The notes under the pieces are model-generated. The model had not been told where the DNA came from. It worked only from the letters and a program-made list of their open reading frames with translations, and searched no databases. Of a stretch of 53,176 nucleotides of DNA, positions 27,746 through 45,266 are shown in pieces (position 1 is the first letter of the stretch; every line of letters begins with the position of its first letter). Both the position numbers and the translations under genes were made by a program. The DNA is taken from IMG/VR virus record IMGVR_UViG_2737471835_000006. One strand, 5' to 3'. The DNA comes from a virus. Lineage: Duplodnaviria > Heunggongvirae > Uroviricota > Caudoviricetes.

Positions 27746-27854
27746 CTCTCTCTATGGAACAGACTTTAGTCGATTTAATGGAGAAGACCAGCAACCCCAA
27801 ATGACCAAGTAACAAGTGCTGGCCTTATAGACGATTACTGAGTGTGTTCGAGTG

Positions 27855-28259
27855 CTATCGTTGTACAATTCGTCCGTTGGGATCCAGCCACATCCCATCA
27901 GAAAGATACACCATTTCCCTGGGTTCATCCGTTACCTGCAGGTCATGGTAAATTGAAGTAAGTTCATTTTTAGGTGAAGGAGTGATATCTTCGCTTCCAA
28001 AGATCATATCTTGGTATTGTGCCCAATTTTGGCGAATTTCGAAATACATATCAACATCATAATCCTGCCCTCTTAGTTCATCATCTGAAGATATATTCAA
28101 TGTCTTTTTGAGACCGATGATGTTAAAGATCCACTTCTTACCACCTTTAATGAAGTATGCCCCAGTATATGCCTCTTCATCTGGTACAGCCTCATAACCT
28201 AAATTTAATGCTAATTGTATCTGTTCTGCTAATGTAAAAGGCTCTTTCCATCCACTCAT
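27855..28259 (-). CDS. Hypothetical protein (AT-rich cassette)
   Basis: 134 aa acidic protein with ATG start; no motif recognised. Confidence 0.4.
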   Translation of the reverse strand: MSGWKEPFTLAEQIQLALNLGYEAVPDEEAYTGAYFIKGGKKWIFNIIGLKKTLNISSDDELRGQDYDVDMYFEIRQNWAQYQDMIFGSEDITPSPKNELTSIYHDLQVTDEPREMVYLSDGMWLDPNGRIVQR

Positions 28260-28579
28260 AGCTTATTACCTACCTGTGAACCTGTTTGCTGCATGAAAAA
28301 CAATATAATAAAGCGTTATTGAAGACTATGATCCAAGTAAATTTAATCAAATACGTTTATAACGTATTTGCCTAAACAACTTCCAACGTATGATCCGCTT
28401 CTCGCTCTCAGCAGACCTTTATCTGCAGGTGCTTGTCTGCTGTGTTCCAGAAGCAGATATTATTATATAACTCTTTAACCCATGTATGACAAAATATTCT
28501 TGGAGCTTATTAAAACTTCATACGTCTAAATCACCTCTTCATTAGTGAATCAATAATTGTATAGTTAAAATGTAACACT

Positions 28580-29245
28580 TTATTTTTTATGATTAACTTG
28601 CTTTGCTAAAGAGCTATAAATCATATCAACCAAAACATATTTTTCGCATTCCCAAGGTTCACTAATAGATGGGTTTACTAAGTCTGGCTTCCCCCCCATT
28701 AGTGTATGAACATGCGAATAAATACCTATTCTTTCTGCGAGCTGCATTATTTTTATTTGATGTTCTGGTGGGAGCATTTTGTTTTTAAACCATGTTGTAA
28801 ATATATGCTTGGTAAGTTCCTTAGTACAAACAAACCATTCACCTTGACGTCTTTCGTTGCTAAATTTTTCATGAAGATAGTTTTCTTTTTCTGAACCACC
28901 TGGTTCCAAAGCGTGTAATATTAATTGACCAAATGCACCTGTCTGCAGGTTAGACAACCTTTTTAGCACATTATTGGAACGCCCTATTTTCACATAAAGT
29001 CCCGAGTAAGGGTTATTTTTATCTGAAGAACCGGCCCAAGTATCAGGCACTTGTAAAATATAATAAATACTACTTACTTTCCCACTCGATACATTATTTG
29101 CCCAAATCTGCCATTCTTCCATCCAGCTTTTTGCATCTTCTCTCGTGTCAAAGGCATGACTTGTATAGTAAAATTCACCAGTATCCAAGAACATATCGAA
29201 AACATATTTGCCATTCTCTATAATTCTTAAGTTGTCGGCTTTCAT
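28580..29245 (-). CDS. T5orf172 / GIY-YIG-superfamily domain protein
   Basis: 221 aa; central GLYVKIGRSNNVLKRLSNLQTG ... ENYLHEKFSNERRQGEWF matches the T5orf172 (Mug113-like) signature; AT-rich gene with large AT-rich upstream region. Confidence 0.55.
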   Translation of the reverse strand: MKADNLRIIENGKYVFDMFLDTGEFYYTSHAFDTREDAKSWMEEWQIWANNVSSGKVSSIYYILQVPDTWAGSSDKNNPYSGLYVKIGRSNNVLKRLSNLQTGAFGQLILHALEPGGSEKENYLHEKFSNERRQGEWFVCTKELTKHIFTTWFKNKMLPPEHQIKIMQLAERIGIYSHVHTLMGGKPDLVNPSISEPWECEKYVLVDMIYSSLAKQVNHKK

Positions 29246-29449
29246 GGAAGTTTCTCACAAAGTTACAGGAATATATAAAAACTTTACTACGCTTAGTATA
29301 TATTACCACCTGATTATGTATTATTTGATTTACACAACTTATTGCTAGTAATAACGGTTTTGATGTAATCTTCTCATCCCAAACTAACCTTCAAAATAGA
29401 TTTAATCTAAATTATATCAAAATATGCTCTCAGTTAAGATGGCTTATTT

Positions 29450-29647
29450 TTAATCAGTTAGAGGATCAACCTGATTTTCTCTAATAAGATTTCGTAACGC
29501 AGTACGAGCAGCCGCGACTTCTGTCATTCCATTTAGAACCACGCTGGAATGCCCTCCTCTAACCCCAAAGACTGTGACCATATCCTCTTCACGGAAGTAT
29601 TCTGCTTCATACTGAAGGCCATCTTTCTCTACGCGAATATATGACAT
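29450..29647 (-). CDS. Hypothetical small protein
   Basis: 65 aa ORF upstream of the T5orf172 gene on the same strand. Confidence 0.3.
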   Translation of the reverse strand: MSYIRVEKDGLQYEAEYFREEDMVTVFGVRGGHSSVVLNGMTEVAAARTALRNLIRENQVDPLTD

Positions 29648-30273
29648 AACAACCTCATTTTATTATCTTTTGTTTGAATGATATATCCACAAAATAATTT
29701 AAGCAATCTCGCCCAAGACGGTACGCCAAGCTTGCCTTGTAAGTATACTGTAAATATTCCGATAAAACTAATCATTCGCTTTTAGCGCATGTCCAAAAAA
29801 TGGTTCAGGTATCCTATCGTGCCAATATTCGCTCCTCACTCATAGCGGCTTTCAGGCAAGTTAACTAGTCCGCTCGGTGCCATATAGAGCCATGGTTATT
29901 AACAGCAGGGAATAATTCCACACTGAAATTAAATGTCTACCTTTTACAGTAGAAATAGTTCCTCCAGGACACTATCCATTGCCGGGCACAATCACTCGGG
30001 GTATAACGATATAAAATATGTTCATGATAGTGCAGGTTCGTATATTAAGTTCAGCAGCGAAAACATGCCTTACAGGTTTCCGGTTTTGGGAGCGTCGTTA
30101 CAGGATCCTGTGCATACCGTTCCCATCTGTTGAATTAAAGGTTTCACAGCCTTTGCCGATATCACCTTTTACCTTGCCTGTGATGCGTTCAGTGCTCAGC
30201 GTTGTTTACTGTAGCTCTCGGAACTGATTACAGACCGCGTCTTAAAAACCAATCCTTACTCTAAAGGGAATTC

Positions 30274-31197
30274 ATGAGATTAAAATACTCAGTACTCTTA
30301 CTCGCCATTGCCCTTACAGGCTGTGATAACAAAAAAGATGAGATCGGTTGTTCTTCGGAAATGACCCAATCAGCTCTCATGGATTTATTAAAAAAATCTG
30401 CTTATGAAGGACTCTCTGAACAGGTCGATAAATACCCTGATGTCACTAATCAGACCAAACGAAGCACACTGGACAAGATCAAACTAGCCGTCTCTGAAAT
30501 CTCCACAACATCAAGTGACACGGGCAGCACAATGAAAACTTGTGAAGGGACCGTGACGATGACTCTACCTGCGAACGAGTACGTCCAGCTTTCTGATGCT
30601 TACAGAAAGAATTTTAATCGTAATCTCGATAAGCAAATGGAAAATCTGTTTTTGGAGAACAACGCAAACGCCTTTTCAAAACGTATCACCTACACCGTGC
30701 AGGCGACCGACGATCAGAAAAACGTTTTTGTAAAAACCTCTTCTGATAATCCGATATCAGTGGGCGCCGCTTTACTGACATCGCTTTCCATTATCAACCC
30801 GATCGTTGAGCAGCAGAAAATCCAGCAGGCTAAGGATGCCCAACAGAGTCAAATTGAAGCGGAACAACAGGTGCAACTCAGGGCACAGGAACAGGCCAGG
30901 TATGAGGCGGAGAAGCAAATAGAGAGGCAGGCACAACTTCAGCCGCAAAAAGCTGAAAGCCTTGATCAGTCCCGAATGGCATTTGCGAATGCTGACTCTG
31001 ATTTGAATACAGTCTGGGGCAGGTTAACGCCGGCGAAGAAAAAAGAGTTGCTGCCTTCTCAGCGTCAGTGGATCAAAACTAAGGATGCTATGTGCGGTAA
31101 AGTTTCAATGCAGGGAACAGATGCTGAAGTCAAGAAAATGGTCGACTGCCAGACGCAAATGACCCTTTCAAGAATCGCTTTCCTCAGAAACCAATAA
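30274..31197 (+). CDS. Lipoprotein with C-terminal DUF1311 (LprI-like) domain
   Basis: 307 aa; signal peptide and lipobox LTGC; Gln-rich coiled-coil middle; C-terminal NTVWGRLTPAKKKELLPSQRQWIKTKDAMC pattern. Confidence 0.5.
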   Translation: MRLKYSVLLLAIALTGCDNKKDEIGCSSEMTQSALMDLLKKSAYEGLSEQVDKYPDVTNQTKRSTLDKIKLAVSEISTTSSDTGSTMKTCEGTVTMTLPANEYVQLSDAYRKNFNRNLDKQMENLFLENNANAFSKRITYTVQATDDQKNVFVKTSSDNPISVGAALLTSLSIINPIVEQQKIQQAKDAQQSQIEAEQQVQLRAQEQARYEAEKQIERQAQLQPQKAESLDQSRMAFANADSDLNTVWGRLTPAKKKELLPSQRQWIKTKDAMCGKVSMQGTDAEVKKMVDCQTQMTLSRIAFLRNQ

Positions 31198-31268
31198 CTG
31201 AAGTTTCCTTCAAGCTGGCGCCTGGTGTTAACCTGGTGCCAGCTTAGTCATCAAGTACATACGTAACA

Positions 31269-31346
31269 GTTTTACATGGGCGGTACTTTGACAGAGTATT
31301 CGGCCTCGTGCTGGTTGTGACTAAATACCTTTTTAAGCGCAAATAG
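31269..31346 (+). repeat. Direct repeat copy 2 (degenerate duplicate of the 27140-27745 gene end)
   Basis: Matches 27667-27745 but carries a 1-nt deletion, so is out of frame; lies just downstream of the antirepressor-like gene stop. Confidence 0.85.
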
Positions 31347-31374
31347 AGTATAACCGCGCCAAACATTCAACCTG

Positions 31375-32169
31375 TCAAAATGCTGAATCAGCAACGGATA
31401 CAACCGACTTTTTCCCCATTACCATCAATTTATCCAGCGTCATACTTCGCAGGTTGTCGCTGTGGATCACCAGATACCCTGCCCGCTCAGCGATCTCTTT
31501 GAAAGCGTCAAACGTCATCAGATGTTCGCCTTTGGCAACATGGCGCATCCTGGTCACTTTTCCATTTTTGATAGTGGTGATAAAAGAAAAATCTGGAATG
31601 GTTGGCTGATTTTCATCGAGTAGCAGGCAGTGGATGTATTCAATCGCCTCTAACATTTGCGTCTGTGACAGTTGTTCTATGTGAGAGACGGCGAAGCGTT
31701 GATGAATCATGGTGTAGGCATCGGGATACATCATGCCTTTCTTACCGACCAGCATATTAACGGCATCACGTAAGGGAGTACGGTCATCGGTAGTTGTACT
31801 CCGCCTCTCTGGACGCTGTCTAAAATAACAATCTTCCAGCTTTTCGAAAACTTCCCAGGCCTGTTCTGTTTCCAGCATTTTGGCATGGCGAGCTGCGCCG
31901 CATTCTGTCCAGAGGATGAGAGAGCGGACATTTCTGGCGATTTTCACAGGAGGTCTTAAAGACATGCTGTGCTTAAATTCGCGCAACTCCTCACCTTCGA
32001 GCAAAAAGTAATGCTTCCCGACCACGAATCGCTCTGAGTTCCGGTTATGGTTTTTACGAATGTAATCCGGCTCTGTGCCATAGAGGTTCGCGAGTAATTC
32101 GGTGGTGAGGACGGGAAGTTGGTTGTGGATAATCGGGGAGATGGCTGCTGCGGATACTTGAGTTGTCAT
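31375..32169 (-). CDS. Phage antirepressor-like protein (ORF6N-type N-terminal domain)
   Basis: 264 aa; N-terminal LLANLYGTEPDYIRKNHNRNSERFVVGKHYFLLEGEELREFK resembles the ORF6N domain. Confidence 0.55.
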   Translation of the reverse strand: MTTQVSAAAISPIIHNQLPVLTTELLANLYGTEPDYIRKNHNRNSERFVVGKHYFLLEGEELREFKHSMSLRPPVKIARNVRSLILWTECGAARHAKMLETEQAWEVFEKLEDCYFRQRPERRSTTTDDRTPLRDAVNMLVGKKGMMYPDAYTMIHQRFAVSHIEQLSQTQMLEAIEYIHCLLLDENQPTIPDFSFITTIKNGKVTRMRHVAKGEHLMTFDAFKEIAERAGYLVIHSDNLRSMTLDKLMVMGKKSVVSVADSAF

Positions 32170-32441
32170 AGCGATTTCCTTTTAGTCGGATAATCACCCC
32201 CCTCAGGTGCAAATCTTTGGGTGGTGAGACATGCAGGGTTTGCACTACCGGCTAAAAGGACCCGGCGAGCCTTTCGACTCCCCTACACGCCCCACCATAA
32301 ATCGCGGATGTGGCTGTGCGCACGACAATAAAAAAGACGCTGGCGCGTCGTTGTCGCCTTTTAGATATCCGGGGTGCAAATCCCGGCAACCGATTTTGCG
32401 GCTGCGCGGAAACTATAGCCCCGGGCTTTTTCTAAGTCAAT

Positions 32442-37265: not shown

Positions 37266-37679
37266 ATGAGGATGAAGAATTTGATGCTTAGCGACCGTTT
37301 ATCTCAAAGACGCAAACAGCTTGGTCTAACCCAACAACAGCTTGCTGATATGGTTGGAAGATCGAGTGTGAGCGTTTTTAAATGGGAAAGCGGACAAAAT
37401 GAACCAAAAGGTCAGAACTTGCTGGCTTTGGCCAATGCACTTAAGTGTTCTGCCACATGGCTGCTTTTTGGTGACGAAGACCAGGCGCCAACTCCGGTAG
37501 ACGAATTACCAACAGAGCTGGATTCACGTCAAAAAAGATTGTTAGAGTTATTTGATTCATTACCCGAGTCAGAAAAAGAAAAGCAACTAATTGAATTAGA
37601 AGATAAAGTTGAAAACTTTAATCGTTTATTTGAAGAGTTACTGGTTACCAGAAAGAAACTAACCCCCATCAAAAAATAA
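37266..37679 (+). CDS. XRE-family HTH repressor (CI-like) lacking a LexA-type peptidase domain
   Basis: 137 aa; HTH LTQQQLADMVGRSSVSVFKWESG; acidic C-terminus; start codon choice among the first three Met is uncertain. Confidence 0.7.
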   Translation: MRMKNLMLSDRLSQRRKQLGLTQQQLADMVGRSSVSVFKWESGQNEPKGQNLLALANALKCSATWLLFGDEDQAPTPVDELPTELDSRQKRLLELFDSLPESEKEKQLIELEDKVENFNRLFEELLVTRKKLTPIKK

Positions 37680-38083: not shown

Positions 38084-38267
38084 ATATTCCCAGGCTGAAA
38101 TCATCACCCGGATAAAGCTCTGATTTAGCTTTTGCAACATGCTTTGATAGGTCGGATTTCTCCTCGTAGCTCATACGACCAACCAACGCAGACAGTATTA
38201 CCTGGTGAGACTTTAGCTCCTTTTTAAGTAAAGCCAGTTCATCTTTAAGTTGTTCAAGCTCTGACAT
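38034..38267 (-). CDS. Hypothetical coiled-coil small protein
   Basis: 77 aa; convergent with and overlapping the 37859-38083 ORF by about 50 bp, so at most one of the pair may be real. Confidence 0.3.
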   Translation of the reverse strand: MSELEQLKDELALLKKELKSHQVILSALVGRMSYEEKSDLSKHVAKAKSELYPGDDFSLGIFNKLLLVTDYKPIPRK

Positions 38268-39005
38268 AAGAAAATCCTTTTTTGTTGTGTGGGCATTAAA
38301 GGTAGCACGACCGGGCGTGTTGAAAAATCCCGGAACTTAATTCTTCGGGTCGCCGACAGCACGATGACAGAGGGAAAGACTTCACCGGCATATGGCACAT
38401 GTGTCGAAGCGGTCTGGATGGAAGCGGAGCCTTAACGCGTTGTCTCCATAGCAGGTAGCCGGAATGTGCAAGCCACAGCCAGGTATGAGCGATTGATTCA
38501 CCATCAAGGCGATACGGTGTGACCACCAGGGAAGAGTCCTGGCTACAACACGAGAGCGCACTTCATCGACTCAACTTTGAGCTTTGTCGTTAAATTTTGA
38601 AATGGCGGAGTGCGCTCCCGGTTGTGGTGAACAGGTGTTTAACGGGAACTCCCTGCCCGTTACCCGGTTCGATTCCGGGCGCCCATCATCAATTTGCTGT
38701 GTTTAGTCTTTGCCCAGTCCGCACGATGGGCCATTTTTTCACACAGCCAGGTTTTATCGCTGTGCCTGAGTCCCCAACAGGAGAGGCCAAACCCGCAGCG
38801 TGACACCAGGGAAAGACCGGAGGAAGCACCACGCCTGACCAGCGTTGACCATGAGCCTGACCAGCTCAAAACAGGAAAGACCAGCCCCGTACGGTCGTGA
38901 TGGAAACATAACGACGCCGGAAACGTAACCGGCACCCTTTAGATAGCAAAAGACCCGCACAAGGCGGGCCAGTTACCCCGAACGGCGACCAAACCATTCG
39001 GATTT

Positions 39006-39029
39006 ATCACAAGTGACCAAACTTGTGAT
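39006..39029. promoter_or_regulatory. Perfect 9-bp inverted repeat ATCACAAGT-N6-ACTTGTGAT
   Basis: Read directly; lies upstream of the early-left operon. Confidence 0.4.
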
Positions 39030-39113
39030 GAGGAAAGACCAACGACACTGACGCTATGGAAGCTGATCAATATTCGCTGATCGGTCCCGAGTATACATTA
39101 CCAAGGAGTCGCT

Positions 39114-39434
39114 ATGGAAGCGCGCACCATCCCAGTAACACTCTTTATTCATTATGCAACTTCAACTTTCAGCCATGAAAAGCTGCTTATTGCGACGGTT
39201 GATATGTCAAAAAATTTTCCAGACAGGTACATCCTTATGGAAAGCCGCGAAATTGAAATTACCGTCAACCAGCCCCAGCCAATCGACATCATCGGTTTAC
39301 AGGTTCAGCAGCTGCGTGAGCAAAAACAGAAAACAGCCGCCGACGCCCAACAGCGTATTGCTGCTATCGATGACAAAATCCAGCAGTTACTTTGCATCGA
39401 ATACACGCCAGATACCGTTGAAATCCCCTACTAA
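39114..39434 (+). CDS. Hypothetical protein (first gene of early-left operon)
   Basis: 106 aa; SD AAGGAG 6 nt upstream. Confidence 0.45.
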   Translation: MEARTIPVTLFIHYATSTFSHEKLLIATVDMSKNFPDRYILMESREIEITVNQPQPIDIIGLQVQQLREQKQKTAADAQQRIAAIDDKIQQLLCIEYTPDTVEIPY

Positions 39435-39464: not shown

Positions 39465-41681
39465 ATGACCATTTTTAACGGCTTGTTAGAAGCGAAAAAA
39501 GGTGCGCTCAAAAACGGCGCGATCCCGGCGCTGGCCATCGCCATCGACGCCCCTAACAAAAAAGTTGCCGAGAACATCATCATCGGCAAATTGTGGGAAG
39601 CCTACCCTGACCACGGCGACAACTATTTCAAACCTAAAATCTGGGAAGATGCCCCGGGCCAACCGCGCCCAGGCGTCGGTGAGTTTGATGAGACGTTTGC
39701 CACAGAACACAGTTTTGATGGCGAGAGATGGGTAGTTAACACTCCTGTTGATTCAGGTTGCAGTTCAGCAGATATCTCACAGGTTAGCGACCTGATGAAA
39801 CTGCCTGCTCGTGAACGCTTCGCCGCCGTCCTGCTGTTCAGCCACGATGCCAACGAAGTCGACAGTGAATTGCTTGCGCAGACGCGTGAATACCTGGAGA
39901 TGCTCGACAACAGTGATACTGACAGTGAGGATGAGGTTGACGCGTTTAACCGCATCGTTCTTGATGCCATGGTGGCGTGTAAGCCCATCGAGTACATGCA
40001 TATTGCTGGATTGAATAATCTGGTACATGCAATTTTGGCAAGTTGCGATACCCAGGAACAAAACCCGACCAGTTGGACTATCTCCAAATTTATAAAAAAA
40101 TGGGTAGAGAATCCCGGTAAACGCGATGAAATGCTGCCGGAGGTAAAACCAGAAACAGCATCCGCACGTCCTTACCAACAGACTCACGCCACACTGGATC
40201 GTGAAATTGCCTGCGCCCTGTTACCCGTTGGCCCGGAAAAAATCACCCCCAGCATCCTGAAAGCGGCAGACGAAATAATCAGTCAGGACAGGGAAGATTT
40301 TAAACGCTGGTCAATGGCCTTGCGCACAACGGATCAGATCCTTGCCTATGACCGTGCATCAGTATTCGGTGTTATTCAGAGCGCCCCCGCAAAAGACACG
40401 TACCACTTCCCACAATCCCTGCGCAGTCACATCGACAACTGGCTGCAAGCTAACGGGCAGCGTGATGCAAATGCTGTTGAAGAGAAGCCAAAGGAAGCAG
40501 CACCAAAGGATGATGTAAAAGTCACCAACCACGGCGGCGGACGATTCTCAATTGATGGGATGATGTCAGAAACACCCTCAAATCAGGGCGAAAAAAGCGA
40601 AGCTGCAAATGCTGGAGAACGTAGTTTGCAGCAGTTGCGTGAGCAGTTTGTCACGCCTCGCCATGTGTATGACGTACCTGAAAATAACGCCGTATCACAG
40701 AGGGAACCTGCAGCAATTACCCTGGCAGAAGAGACTCCTCCACAAGAAAAACTTAGCGAGCAGGTAAAGGATCTGGTGCAGAACGTTGACGCGCTGGTTG
40801 AGCGGGTCCATACCGAAGAGCACAAGCGGCAGAATGCAATCTCAGCTATCGAAACGGAGTTAAAGGACTCCGACGACACAGATAACCTGGCATTGTGGAA
40901 GAACGTATTCAAAACCGATGAGCGCTTCACCAGTGCTTTCTCTCAGAACGGCGGCGGCACATCCATCAACGGCACTTATATAGCGATGAAAGCGACTCGC
41001 GAATTTGGGCCGTTTGGTATTGGCTGGGGTGTAGAGGTGGTGGAAGAGCGTTTTGATAAAGGCGCACCGATAGTTCGCAAAAAACAGGTTGGTGAAAAAA
41101 TAGAATGGGATCTGATTCAAGACGGTGTTGGCGGGTACCTATGTGAAATGCACCACACCATGAAAGTTAGAGTCTGGTACATATTGAATGGAGTGCGCGG
41201 TGAGTCCGAGGCTTACGGATGCACACCTTATATCTACGACACTAAATACGGACCAACAAGCGACGGCGAAGCGCCGAAGAAATCCTGGACGGATGCTGTT
41301 AAGAAAGCGCTATCCCCTCTCGGATTCAGCGCCGATATTTTCATGGGCCTGTACGACAATCCGGAATACCGCCAGAGGAATAAAGCTGAGTTTGATATCA
41401 AGAATGCCAGCGAAAATGCGGAAGATGCTACCCGTCTGCGTAAGGAACTGGATGAGAAGCTTATCAACGTTGCCAATACGCTGGCCGCCGCGGTAACCGC
41501 CAACGAAGTAAACAAGGTATTTGGCCTCATCGCCCGCGAAGTGGATGTACACAGGAAAGCAGCGGAAGCCAAAGGCGATAAAGAATATTCATCGTATCTG
41601 GGATCACGTCTGCGCCGTATCAGCGACATCAAAACCGAACGCCTCGCCGCTCTCGCCGCCGCACAGGAGCAAACAGCATGA
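39465..41681 (+). CDS. Large early-left protein with C-terminal Rad52/Sak-like single-strand annealing domain
   Basis: 738 aa; C-terminal REFGPFGIGWGVEV ... EAYGCTPYIYD ... KKSWTDAVKKALSPLGFSADIF resembles Rad52-family SSAP motifs; acidic N-terminal half of unknown function. Confidence 0.45.
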   Translation: MTIFNGLLEAKKGALKNGAIPALAIAIDAPNKKVAENIIIGKLWEAYPDHGDNYFKPKIWEDAPGQPRPGVGEFDETFATEHSFDGERWVVNTPVDSGCSSADISQVSDLMKLPARERFAAVLLFSHDANEVDSELLAQTREYLEMLDNSDTDSEDEVDAFNRIVLDAMVACKPIEYMHIAGLNNLVHAILASCDTQEQNPTSWTISKFIKKWVENPGKRDEMLPEVKPETASARPYQQTHATLDREIACALLPVGPEKITPSILKAADEIISQDREDFKRWSMALRTTDQILAYDRASVFGVIQSAPAKDTYHFPQSLRSHIDNWLQANGQRDANAVEEKPKEAAPKDDVKVTNHGGGRFSIDGMMSETPSNQGEKSEAANAGERSLQQLREQFVTPRHVYDVPENNAVSQREPAAITLAEETPPQEKLSEQVKDLVQNVDALVERVHTEEHKRQNAISAIETELKDSDDTDNLALWKNVFKTDERFTSAFSQNGGGTSINGTYIAMKATREFGPFGIGWGVEVVEERFDKGAPIVRKKQVGEKIEWDLIQDGVGGYLCEMHHTMKVRVWYILNGVRGESEAYGCTPYIYDTKYGPTSDGEAPKKSWTDAVKKALSPLGFSADIFMGLYDNPEYRQRNKAEFDIKNASENAEDATRLRKELDEKLINVANTLAAAVTANEVNKVFGLIAREVDVHRKAAEAKGDKEYSSYLGSRLRRISDIKTERLAALAAAQEQTA

Positions 41682-42247
41682 GCACCGCTATCGCTATTGC
41701 AAAAGAATACGCCAGCCTGATTGACCTGCTGGAAACCTCCGACGAACTGACGCCAGAGATGATCGCCGACACACTTGAAGGTATGGAAGGAGAACTGGGA
41801 GACAAACTGGACGCCATGATGGTCATCTGCCGCAATTTACAGGGCAATGCCAGTACCTGCGCTGAAGAAATGTCTCGCCTGGCTACCCGTAAGACGTCCT
41901 TTGAAGGCAAGGAAAAAGCAATTCGGAAGCATATGCTCGCCTGCCAGCAAGCTGCTGGCCTGGATAAACTAAAAACCGCAAAAAACACATTTACTGATGC
42001 ACAGGGGGCTATCCGGGTAATTATCGATAGCAAAGATAAGATCCCGGATGAGTATGAAGGCGTGTCACTTGTTGATGTAGAAACGGTTATTACACCAAAC
42101 AAGCGAGCCATTAAAGAAGTGATTGAATCTGCGGAGGCGGTTGCCGCCGAAATACTGGCGCGTGGAGAAACACCACCAGCCGAGTTATTAAACCCGGTAC
42201 CAGGCGCACATCTGGAACGCGGCGAACGTTCGCTGAGGGTACGCTAA
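41678..42247 (+). CDS. Hypothetical protein coupled to the recombination protein
   Basis: 189 aa; ATGA overlap with the upstream gene; helical, acidic. Confidence 0.4.
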   Translation: MSTAIAIAKEYASLIDLLETSDELTPEMIADTLEGMEGELGDKLDAMMVICRNLQGNASTCAEEMSRLATRKTSFEGKEKAIRKHMLACQQAAGLDKLKTAKNTFTDAQGAIRVIIDSKDKIPDEYEGVSLVDVETVITPNKRAIKEVIESAEAVAAEILARGETPPAELLNPVPGAHLERGERSLRVR

Positions 42248-42429
42248 TGCTTAAACTCACATTAAAGCGTGGTGACGCGGTTCACCTGGTACTTGCCGAT
42301 GGTACCAATGGCATTATTGAAGCACGGAGTCGCTGCGAACTTGGGCTACACCTGCCAGAAAACATTAAGGTCACGCGGGAGAAATCGGCATTCCCCCCAC
42401 CAGAACTGATTACGCCTAATCAGAAATAA
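42247..42429 (+). CDS. Small beta-rich protein with CsrA-like sequence pattern
   Basis: 60 aa; TAATG overlap with the upstream gene; MLKLTLKRGD ... LGLHLPENIKVTREK loosely parallels CsrA. Confidence 0.3.
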   Translation: MLKLTLKRGDAVHLVLADGTNGIIEARSRCELGLHLPENIKVTREKSAFPPPELITPNQK

Positions 42430-42478: not shown

Positions 42479-42673
42479 ATGCTGCGATGGCAACCGGGAG
42501 CAACTCTGCTCTCCGCATTTGATATCAAAATTGGCCGACTGTCGGCCAGCGTCAGGAAACAGGCCTTGACCGAGTCTGATATTGCCCGTGCCTGCCATGT
42601 GGCAGATGACGCAATAAGCTACATAATGAGGAAAGACCATGAACGATCTGTTAAACGACGAGGAACTGGTTGA
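42479..42673 (+). CDS. Hypothetical small protein
   Basis: 64 aa from the Met preceded by SD AGGAGG (7-nt spacer); the six-frame ORF starts 30 nt upstream. Confidence 0.35.
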   Translation: MLRWQPGATLLSAFDIKIGRLSASVRKQALTESDIARACHVADDAISYIMRKDHERSVKRRGTG

Positions 42674-42854
42674 ACTGACCGGCTACCAGTTCCCGTCAAA
42701 ACAATGCGGCGCCCTGACCCGTGCCGGGATCTCTTATGTAAAACGCCGCGATGGGCGACCTCGCGTCACATGGACGCATGTAAACGCTGCGCTGTCCGGA
42801 GCAAGGTCCGTGCAGATTGCCGAAGAAGAACAACCAAATTTTGATGCAATCTGA
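42639..42854 (+). CDS. Putative excisionase / recombination directionality factor
   Basis: 71 aa immediately upstream of the integrase with overlapping stop/start. Confidence 0.4.
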   Translation: MNDLLNDEELVELTGYQFPSKQCGALTRAGISYVKRRDGRPRVTWTHVNAALSGARSVQIAEEEQPNFDAI

Positions 42855-43882
42855 TGAGCAGAACACGAAAAAGCGCGGAAGATAATAAGCTGCCACCCCG
42901 CGTTTATAAAAACAAATACAGCTATTATTTCAAACCAACGCCCCGAGAGTGTATTACGCTGGGTAAAATTAATGATCTGTCAATTGCTCAGGTATGGGTG
43001 AAATACGAAGAGATCCTGAATGATGCTATTGATGTCATGACGTTCAGTAAACTCTGGAACAAATTTCTCAACAGCACCTACTATCTGGAACTCGGTCAGC
43101 GTACACAAAAGGATTATCTGCAGCACCAGAAGAAATTACTCGCCGCGTTCGGGAAAATGAAAGCCGACAACATAAAACCTGCTCACGTGCGGCTGTATAT
43201 GGACAAGCGGGGGCTGAAAAGCAAAACACAGGCGAACCATGAAAAAGCCAGTATGTCGCGAGTATTCCGCTGGGGATACGAACGCGGATACGTAAAAGGG
43301 AATCCATGCCAGGGCGTCAGTAAATTTTCCCTCAAGCCCCGCGACTACTATTTCACGGACGAGGAATATATCGCAATTTATCAGGAGGCATCTCCCGTTT
43401 TACAGTGCGCGATGGAGATCGCCTATCTGTGCGCCACGCGGATCGGCGATATACGAAAGCTGACGTGGGATCAGGTTATGAGTAAGGGTTTGTTTATCCA
43501 ACAGGGTAAGACTGGCAAAAAGCAGATCAAACAGTATTCAGAGCGACTGACGTTCGCACTTGAGCAGGCGAAATCGTTGGGAGGACAACATTTCGTGGTC
43601 TGTAACAAATATGGCGGGCAATACAGTTATACCGGATTTAACGATATCTGGCGTAAAGCCAGGGCGGCGGCAAGTGAAAAGCTGGGCTACCCGATTACGG
43701 GAACGTTTCACGATTTAAAAGCGAAGGGGATCTCAGACTACGACGGAAGCAGTAAAGAAAAGCAGTTGTTCTCTGGTCACAAAACTGAGGCGCAGGTGCT
43801 GACGTATGATCGCAAACCTGCAGTTTCTCCGACTCTGGATATTCCGGTGCTGGATGTCACAGTTCTGAGCAGAAACCCGTGA
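42854..43882 (+). CDS. Tyrosine site-specific integrase
   Basis: 342 aa; phage-integrase architecture with C-terminal catalytic region (HDLKAKGISDY ... LFSGHK ... LTYDRK); adjacent to a tRNA-derived att core. Confidence 0.8.
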   Translation: MSRTRKSAEDNKLPPRVYKNKYSYYFKPTPRECITLGKINDLSIAQVWVKYEEILNDAIDVMTFSKLWNKFLNSTYYLELGQRTQKDYLQHQKKLLAAFGKMKADNIKPAHVRLYMDKRGLKSKTQANHEKASMSRVFRWGYERGYVKGNPCQGVSKFSLKPRDYYFTDEEYIAIYQEASPVLQCAMEIAYLCATRIGDIRKLTWDQVMSKGLFIQQGKTGKKQIKQYSERLTFALEQAKSLGGQHFVVCNKYGGQYSYTGFNDIWRKARAAASEKLGYPITGTFHDLKAKGISDYDGSSKEKQLFSGHKTEAQVLTYDRKPAVSPTLDIPVLDVTVLSRNP

Positions 43883-43967: not shown

Positions 43968-44037
43968 TGGCGGAGAGAGGGGGATTTGAACCCCCGGTAG
44001 AGTTGCCCCTACTCCGGTTTTCGAGACCGGCCCGTTC
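43968..44037 (-). tRNA. tRNA-Ser (anticodon CGA) 3' fragment; att core copy, not a complete gene
   Basis: Minus strand reads anticodon arm CCGGT-CTCGAAA-ACCGG, long variable arm, T-arm GGGGG-TTCAAAT-CCCCC, acceptor 3' strand TCTCTCC and CCA; no complementary 5' acceptor strand exists upstream. Confidence 0.6.
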
Positions 44038-44163: not shown

Positions 44164-45266
44164 ATGTTCATTAATATACACCACACAAATAATTCACAGA
44201 TATTGCAAAATGCTCAGGTCAAAAATAAAATAAAACGTGTTGATCGTCTGCTCGGTAATGAATCTCTTCATCACGACATCCCCCTGATTTTCATAAACAT
44301 TATTTCCATGCTGACGAGCAAGCTGTCACTGTGTGTCATCGCCGTTGACTGGAGTGGATACCCCTCTCAGGAGTATCACGTACTCCGCGCCAGCCTGATT
44401 TGCGATGGACGTTCGATTCCATTGCTGAGTTGGATAGTTCCTTCGGAAAAACAGCAAAATGCTAAGATACAGCAAGCCTTTCTTAATACTCTTTCCGAAG
44501 CGGTAAACCCAAAAGCAAGGGTAATCATCGTCGCGGATGCAGGGTTTCAGAATGCCTGGTTTCGGCACGTAAAATCACTCGGCTCGGATTTTATTGGCCG
44601 GATACGAGGCAATAAACAACTACATCTGGCAAGAAAAGGGGAATGCTGGTTCAGGCGTCAGGAATTACAGGCCAGTAACAAACCTGAATATCTGGGGCCG
44701 GGGACGCTTTCCCGGGCGGAATACGCCCGTTGCGATGGTCATTTTTATTTGCACAAAAAAGAGCCGAAAGGCCGGAGAAATAAACGTTCGCGTTGTGGTA
44801 TAGCCAGACCATCACAGATAAAAGATGCCAGGTCGGCGGCAAAAGAACCATGGTTAATATTCAGCAGCACAGATGACTTTAAACCGCGAGAAATCATGAA
44901 GTTATACAGCCACCGAATGCAGATTGAGCAAAACTTCAGGGATGAAAAAAGTGAGCGTTTTGGGTTCGGTCTGCGAGCCAGTTGCAGCTGTTCGGCAGGA
45001 AGAATGCTGGTACTGAGCCTGCTGGCAACACTGAGCACAATAGTGCTGTGGCTTATTGGCTATCACGCTGAAAATCAAGGAGATATCAGGCCAACAGCAT
45101 TAAAACGCAGCGGGTAATCTCGCATCTGACGTTAGCGGAGAATGTCTTACGACACTCCCCGCTAATTTTAAAACGAACGGTGCTAAGCACCATTCTTAAT
45201 CACCTCGCCAGAACCTACCAGAATATGGTGTTGGTTTATTAGCGCTGATTTATGGGGATCCCTCAG
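44164..45266 (+). mobile_element. IS4-family (IS10-like) insertion sequence remnant with disrupted transposase
   Basis: 317-aa ORF 44164-45117 collinear with the IS10 transposase core (KRVDRLLGN, VIIVADAGF, SAAKEPWL, YSHRMQIEQNFRDEKS) but short at both ends; terminal repeat CTGAGGGATCCCCATAAAT (reverse strand) at 45248-45266; no left end found. Confidence 0.6.

Follow-up and report, generated by a model that had tools for sequence, protein, structure and literature searches.

How should a phage gene be understood if its 738-residue product appears to end in a Rad52-like annealing domain and its stop codon overlaps the start of a second gene? The question is raised by IMG/VR virus record IMGVR_UViG_2737471835_000006, a Caudoviricetes sequence of 53,176 nucleotides that is referred to here, at its full length, as the window. 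The large gene is an open reading frame (ORF) at 39465..41681 on the plus strand that encodes 738 amino acids (aa), and its partner is an ORF at 41678..42247 on the same strand that encodes 189 aa. The ATG of the partner shares four bases with the TGA stop of the large gene at the junction GCATGAGC, and the ATG of the large gene has a GAGGA ribosome-binding site 8-12 bases 5' of it. An earlier, sequence-only reading had described this pair as two ORFs overlapping by ATGA in an early-left operon, and the ORF coordinates and the junction confirm that description. The best explanation, to which we assign a probability of about 70%, is that the pair serves a temperate, ZF40-like prophage with lambdoid regulation as its homologous-recombination (Rec) module, in which a single-strand annealing protein carried on a scaffold is accompanied by a Gp157 accessory protein and has no nuclease of its own.

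The 738-aa protein as a whole has no Pfam match above threshold. Stand-alone proteins of 240-275 aa, from Pseudomonas, Yersinia, Serratia, other bacteria and phages, share 40-60% identity with aa 464-738, so that this region can be treated as an autonomous unit. Rad52-like motifs had been reported in the last 250 or so residues; they are present, and the boundaries can be refined to a single-strand annealing core of aa 464-640 (40854..41384, plus strand, as are all parts of the gene) and a three-helix tail of aa 641-738 (41385..41678). The C-terminal domain shares its beta-beta-beta-alpha core fold with the RAD52 N-terminal domain. Below its threshold, the Pfam family Rad52_Rad22 (PF04098) matches 24 of 32 family members when these are scanned singly, with a best E-value of 1.4e-5. 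An hhalign comparison of the C-terminal profile with residues 1-207 of RAD52, whose sequence was entered by hand, gives an E-value of 0.0022, and pairs FGPFGIGW of the core with FGYNGW and TDAVKKALSPLG with TDGLKRALRSFG of RAD52. In the same alignment the invariant or nearly invariant K613 and K614 (nt 41301-41306), found in the TDAVKKAL helix of the core, fall on the RAD52 groove residues K152 and R153. Near the position of RAD52 R55, a lysine is nearly invariant in the family, and the 738-aa protein has a serine. Assignment of the C-terminus to an unrelated fold had been named as the outcome that would overturn the Rad52 claim; profile searches assign none, and structure comparison gives the Rad52 core fold.

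The C-terminal domain forms its own clade within the Rad52 fold superfamily, under the Pfam family threshold, and it has no Pfam match to Sak3/DUF1071 (PF06378). Homology and fold suggest that it probably anneals single-stranded DNA (ssDNA) and forms oligomers. The tail is modeled as helices with predicted local distance difference test (pLDDT) scores above 90, has a mean identity of 55%, and is also found in the stand-alone homologues of 240-275 aa. It is a candidate binding domain for a partner or for single-stranded DNA-binding protein (SSB).

The region that precedes the annealing domain had been read as acidic and free of motifs. It is acidic, with a net charge of -30 and a pI of 4.8 over the N-terminal 470 residues, but it is not free of motifs, given that sequence comparison identifies aa 1-335 as a homologue of the N-terminal, non-catalytic part of RecE/exonuclease VIII. 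An AlphaFold2 model (pLDDT 86.7) divides the N-terminal half into three folded domains: N1 (aa 1-95, 39465..39749), a small alpha/beta domain; N2 (aa 110-225, 39792..40139), a helical domain that is the least conserved of the three and is duplicated or replaced in some homologues; and N3 (aa 240-335, 40182..40469), also helical, which is the core common to RecE/exonuclease VIII proteins. In PHROGs, aa 232-327 match the exonuclease VIII family phrog_607 with an E-value of 2.5e-24. In NCBIfam, aa 232-336 align with positions 261-370 of the exodeoxyribonuclease VIII model PRK09709, in a partial match (E 2.5e-12) that falls far under the equivalog cut-off. By tblastn, the N-terminal regions of "exonuclease VIII" proteins from Gifsy-1/2, mEp460-like phages, Tritos and others are 25-41% identical, and BLASTP finds the Tritos protein with an E-value of 1e-18 over aa 18-331 and Gifsy-2 RecE with 2e-16. 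A direct BLASTP match to Rac RecE is marginal (E 0.011), and the homology is clear only via intermediates and by profile: hhalign of a 20-sequence scaffold profile against Rac RecE 1-350 gives a probability of 97.5% and an E-value of 6.6e-12 over 246 columns, covering RecE residues 49-350.

The PD-(D/E)XK 5'-3' exonuclease domain (PF12684-like) that is present in Rac and Gifsy-2 RecE was not found in the 738-aa protein, and none of the 22 annealase-class representatives of the scaffold family has it either. Unlike in Rac and Gifsy-2, the downstream gene is Gp157 rather than recT. The earlier interpretation is supported in part, including its Rad52 reading; in place of the suggested exonuclease-like or regulatory domain, the protein has the RecE-type N-terminal region minus the nuclease. 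The N-terminal 560-600 residues of RecE are described in a review as being of unknown function, although full-length RecE outperforms the nuclease domain alone in linear-linear recombineering (PMC11611040).

The same front half is found on other effectors. When aa 1-345 served as query in an exhaustive HMMER search of 1.84 billion cluster representatives, 138 clusters only were returned, and C-terminal classes were assigned with reference domains for the 82 representatives that are 450 aa or longer. A Rad52-like annealase is present in 22 of these, a RecE PD-(D/E)XK nuclease in 15, and a DEDDh 3'-5' nuclease like that of Tritos/CP-933P (Pfam Rv2179c-like) in 11, and the remaining 34 carry none of these. 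All but one of the 34 (including P0270, P0283 and P0310) share a single uncharacterised C-terminus, phrog_26058, with the motif YRQQLTIAALQGLCANPA and no Pfam domain. This class may correspond to the "RecE-2" proteins, which the main text of a 2025 survey of 325 lambdoid phages describes as RecE relatives that lack the nuclease domain and have unknown roles (PMC12315714). N1 can also be replaced, by the Pfam Exonuc_VIII N-terminus, as in P0309, which consists of Exonuc_VIII_N, N3 and the annealase. Because the same scaffold is found with an annealase, with two nucleases or with a fourth domain, it is a shared module with exchangeable effectors, which suggests that the RecE front half is reusable.

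Scaffold and annealase are joined by a variable acidic linker of aa 336-463 (40470..40853), which is poorly conserved (identity 19%, gap fraction 28%). Within it lies the motif GGGRFSIDGMM at aa 356-366 (nt 40530-40562), with the family pattern nLGgGxFS[IV][DE]GL. The motif is present in 29 of the 82 scaffold-family representatives, across all four C-terminal classes, and in none of the shuffled sequences. It looks like a docking motif for a partner.

The 189-aa partner belongs to Sipho_Gp157 (PF05565), with 94.6 bits against a threshold of 28.6 (E 8.3e-27), its residues 6-156 aligning with positions 4-149 of the 162-position model. It also matches phrog_253 with an E-value of 8.9e-45, and ten of ten homologues of the partner score 107-151 bits to PF05565. 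Among 80 IMG/VR loci with the annealase, the Gp157 gene lies directly 3' of the annealase in 78 of the 78 that can be evaluated, the other two contigs ending just past the annealase, and the two genes usually overlap by four bases. Gp157 pairs with the fused form of the annealase in ZF40 and in Stenotrophomonas phage BUCT708, and with stand-alone annealases in loci L038 and L039 and in the Pseudomonas phages PseuP_222 and PMG1. The neighbor of the nuclease-bearing scaffold proteins is RecT or nothing. Therefore, Gp157 is tied to the annealase and not to the scaffold. The family is already known as a neighbor of annealases; in Firmicutes phages, genes for Gp157, Mu Gam, DUF1351 or DUF2483 alternate beside erf-ssb modules, from which analogous roles have been inferred (PMC8093625). 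A separate candidate, that Gp157 is a cryptic PD-(D/E)XK nuclease based on the conserved D124 and D141-K142, was rejected, as the spacing is not D/E-x-K and the partner here has an asparagine at 141.

Both genes are maintained under purifying selection. Of 5426 complete E. coli genomes, 464 (about 8.6%) contain the 3.5-kb region at 95-100% identity, with the large gene named "hypothetical protein". Compared with two diverged alleles, the 738-aa gene has a ratio of nonsynonymous to synonymous substitution rates (dN/dS) of 0.11-0.14 overall; by region, the scaffold has 0.15-0.19, the linker 0.43-0.57 and the annealase part 0.06-0.09. The partner gene has a ratio of 0.08-0.21. About 70 viral contigs retain the single-ORF architecture, in proteins that are 50-100% identical and 654-881 aa long. 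The conserved DNA, the low dN/dS and the retained architecture indicate that the genes are real, and the last of these also rules out an artefactual fusion by frameshift or misassembly. In E. coli S14 (NZ_CP107114.1, locus L090) and at least seven other genomes (H39-H45), the N-terminal half of the 738-aa gene is interrupted by ISEc52, an IS3-family element. The gene is a pseudogene in these genomes, and the Gp157 gene is intact.

Several results weigh against the proposed assignment. The 738-aa protein itself does not reach the PF04098 cut-off, scoring 13.7 bits where 20.3 are needed (E 0.059, over aa 96-176 of the 275-aa C-terminal query). The hhalign probability to the hand-entered RAD52 sequence is just 13%, and the position of RAD52 R156 is taken by an invariant serine in the family. 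In searches of PDB sequences, neither the whole protein nor profiles of the C-terminal part (32 sequences) and of a trimmed core returned RAD52; the matches were chance coiled-coil or unrelated ones. Given that these searches miss RAD52, the relationship is a distant one, and the evidence for it consists of the fold comparison and the weak Pfam matches. Structure comparison of the scaffold gave no informative match, which makes any role for the scaffold a guess. The end-protection role suggested for Gp157 comes from a PHROG label and from gene position only. Finally, some E. coli carry the large gene broken by ISEc52, and it is therefore dispensable for the lysogen.

If the pair is a Rec module, the C-terminal Rad52-fold domain would form oligomers that bind resected ssDNA in a basic groove and anneal complementary strands. 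The purpose of such annealing would be genome circularisation, repair, recombination-dependent replication and mosaic exchange. The disordered acidic linker of about 130 residues would tether the annealase to the three-domain RecE-type scaffold, which may fix its effector to DNA ends or to a host factor, possibly via the linker motif. Because related prophages put other effectors on the same scaffold, it is most likely an effector-independent module for delivery or assembly. The operon encodes no nuclease, so that resection is presumably carried out by host enzymes. Gp157 would be an accessory factor of the annealase, either a mediator or a modulator of DNA ends or of a host nuclease. A broader and more tentative proposal, which we would not yet bet on, is that the N-terminal 335 or so residues of RecE are a portable delivery module for interchangeable DNA-end effectors in temperate Enterobacterales phages, with a linker motif that docks a common host factor; that the two genes encode a nuclease-free, two-component recombinase of scaffolded annealase and Gp157; and that Gp157 is a dedicated cofactor of the annealase rather than a Gam-like inhibitor.

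Database labels point elsewhere, to a RecE-type exonuclease (exonuclease VIII) with Gp157 as its annealing or accessory partner. The "exonuclease" family phrog_2489 matches the 738-aa protein over its full length, the NCBIfam exodeoxyribonuclease VIII model matches within a RecE-homologous N-terminal region, and NCBI names include "exonuclease family protein" and "phage-associated endonuclease". The sequence-only reading had itself named a match of the whole protein to such an enzyme as a result that would refute it; only the RecE N-terminal region was recovered, with no nuclease domain, and we regard this explanation as highly improbable. The "exonuclease" label of phrog_2489 (the fusion) and of phrog_7838 (the stand-alone annealase of about 242 aa) is probably an error carried over from the RecE-like N-terminus. 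The Rad52-fold domain might instead act outside recombination, in replication restart, ssDNA protection or anti-defence, or as the trigger or decoy for abortive infection that senses annealases, with the scaffold and Gp157 serving that role. Modules in which the scaffold bears the DEDDh nuclease (Tritos) or the "other" class have no visible annealase and hence need not be recombinases, and phage annealases have been linked to host defence sensing (PMC8093625). However, the characterised Rad52-fold proteins that are matched (RAD52, Mgm101 and Sak) all anneal nucleic acids, the gene occupies the classical Rec slot, and none of four proteins matches a PADLOC defence model, so that a role outside recombination is unlikely.

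The function of Gp157 can also be read differently within the preferred Rec-module explanation, with which the following sub-hypothesis is compatible. Gp157 could be a DNA-end binder like Mu Gam or Ku that blocks RecBCD, such that the module would combine an annealase with an anti-RecBCD protein, as do P22 Erf/Abc or lambda Bet/Gam. The label of phrog_253 is "Mu Gam-like end protection", and the record for PseuP_222 names its Gp157 homologue a host-nuclease inhibitor. The main text of the 2025 survey assigns ZF40 an anti-RecBCD gene, for which we infer that gp06, the Gp157 of that phage, is the obvious candidate (PMC12315714). The 53-kb window has just two Chi sites, but that count equals the expectation from base composition and is uninformative, and ZF40 has 19 top-strand Chi sites although it carries Gp157. 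For the same reason, Chi enrichment was set aside as an indicator of RecBCD dependence. Kinship with Mu Gam is not supported by Pfam, hhalign or PDB-sequence searches: ten Gp157 homologues have no match to Phage_Mu_Gam (PF07352) even at E <= 1, the hhalign probability is 0.4%, and the partner has no relative among PDB sequences. A Gam-like activity is less likely than not.

The 738-aa protein differs from the Rad52-family annealases (Sak of the Lactococcus phage ul36, RAD52 and Mgm101) in falling under the PF04098 threshold as a clade of its own with a three-helix tail of about 100 residues, and in that the domain is the C-terminus of a 738-aa protein that always occurs with Gp157, not with SSB or an exonuclease. 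With RecE of the Rac/Gifsy type it shares the homologous N-terminal scaffold of about 335 residues, the operon slot upstream of xis/int, and a long, acidic, disordered linker before the effector, but the annealase replaces the PD-(D/E)XK nuclease and no recT follows. N1 is also unlike the Pfam Exonuc_VIII N-terminus of Rac RecE in sequence type, and P0309 combines that N-terminus with N3 and an annealase. The "exonuclease VIII" of CP-933P/Tritos (823 aa, with a DEDDh/Rv2179c-like C-terminus) has the same N1-N2-N3 scaffold in the same genomic slot, whereas its effector is a 3'-5' DnaQ-like nuclease and it adjoins neither Gp157 nor an annealase. Nuclease-free, two-gene modules, such as P22 Erf with Abc1/Abc2 or the Firmicutes erf/sak3-ssb modules with Gp157 or Mu Gam upstream, likewise consist of a Rad52-superfamily annealase and a small accessory protein, with no dedicated exonuclease. 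In the module described here, in contrast, Gp157 is downstream and translationally coupled, there is no SSB gene, and the annealase bears the RecE scaffold.

ZF40 itself has gp07, a full-length homologue of the 738-aa protein (35% identity over 98%), next to the Gp157 gene gp06. In its main text, the 2025 survey lists ZF40 as the sole member of a type that has an anti-RecBCD gene and is without a nuclease or a strand-annealing protein (PMC12315714). The present analysis differs from that score in assigning a Rad52-fold annealase to the C-terminus. Since gp07 is homologous to the annealase fusion, the domain apparently went unrecognised in the main text of the survey.

The surrounding element is a prophage of about 44 kb that adjoins tRNA-Ser/mtfA in E. 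coli. Its head genes are lambda-like, its tail is contractile and it has a Q antiterminator; its general build is that of Pectobacterium phage ZF40. A megablast search against 50,697 phage records gave no match, and prophages and IMG/VR contigs are the only known sources of the element. The gene pair sits in the early-left operon between the cI-like repressor and xis/int, on the same strand as the repressor (37266-37679) and opposite in direction to cro and the replication genes, a position that is the early-left or "Rec" slot of the lambdoid layout. Directly 5' of the large gene is a 106-aa ORF (39114..39434, plus strand; phrog_2479) that often travels with the module, with a homologue upstream in 70 of the 80 related viral loci. 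On the other side, a 60-aa ORF (42247..42429, plus strand; phrog_2482) is coupled to the partner by a TAATG overlap and is found in 67 of the 80 loci. The DUF4224 excisionase and the tyrosine integrase (42639..43882, plus strand), toward which the pair is directed, close the operon.

Other parts of the window can be described briefly. RefSeq annotates nothing in the roughly 1 kb between a 74-aa ORF and the 106-aa ORF (38084-39113), and no ORF within it is convincing. This part includes an RprA-like Rfam match below threshold at 38631-38741 on the plus strand (37 versus 70 bits, E 0.099), which ends in a terminator-like hairpin at 38717-38731, as well as several terminator-like sites on the minus strand. 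Just past the integrase, at 43968-44033, weak Rfam matches mark a short tRNA- or tmRNA-like fragment that is probably the duplicated end of tRNA-Ser at the attachment site. A 317-aa ORF at 44164-45117 looks like an IS4-type transposase and is not at this position in E. coli E62. An island of low GC content at about 27800-32200 within the prophage (36% in 28-30 kb) may be a region of accessory or defence cargo. According to RefSeq annotation of the identical E62 prophage, its genes encode a GIY-YIG nuclease (28580-29245, minus strand), an LprI-family protein (30274-31197, plus strand) and an ORF6N-domain protein (31375-32169, minus strand).

The 738-aa fusion is a new architecture made from known parts, and its main import is for the RecE N-terminus and the Gp157 family. 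That the scaffold occurs naturally with an annealase, with two unrelated nucleases and with an uncharacterised fourth domain argues that its job is independent of catalysis, and offers a set of natural chimeras. The assignment also corrects a widespread annotation: about 8.6% of complete E. coli genomes, and many Salmonella prophages, have the gene under the name "exonuclease" or "hypothetical protein". The compact pair of annealase and Gp157 from phages of E. coli, Pseudomonas and Vibrio is a candidate for recombineering. Rec modules of the ZF40 type would shift from "no annealase" to "annealase present".

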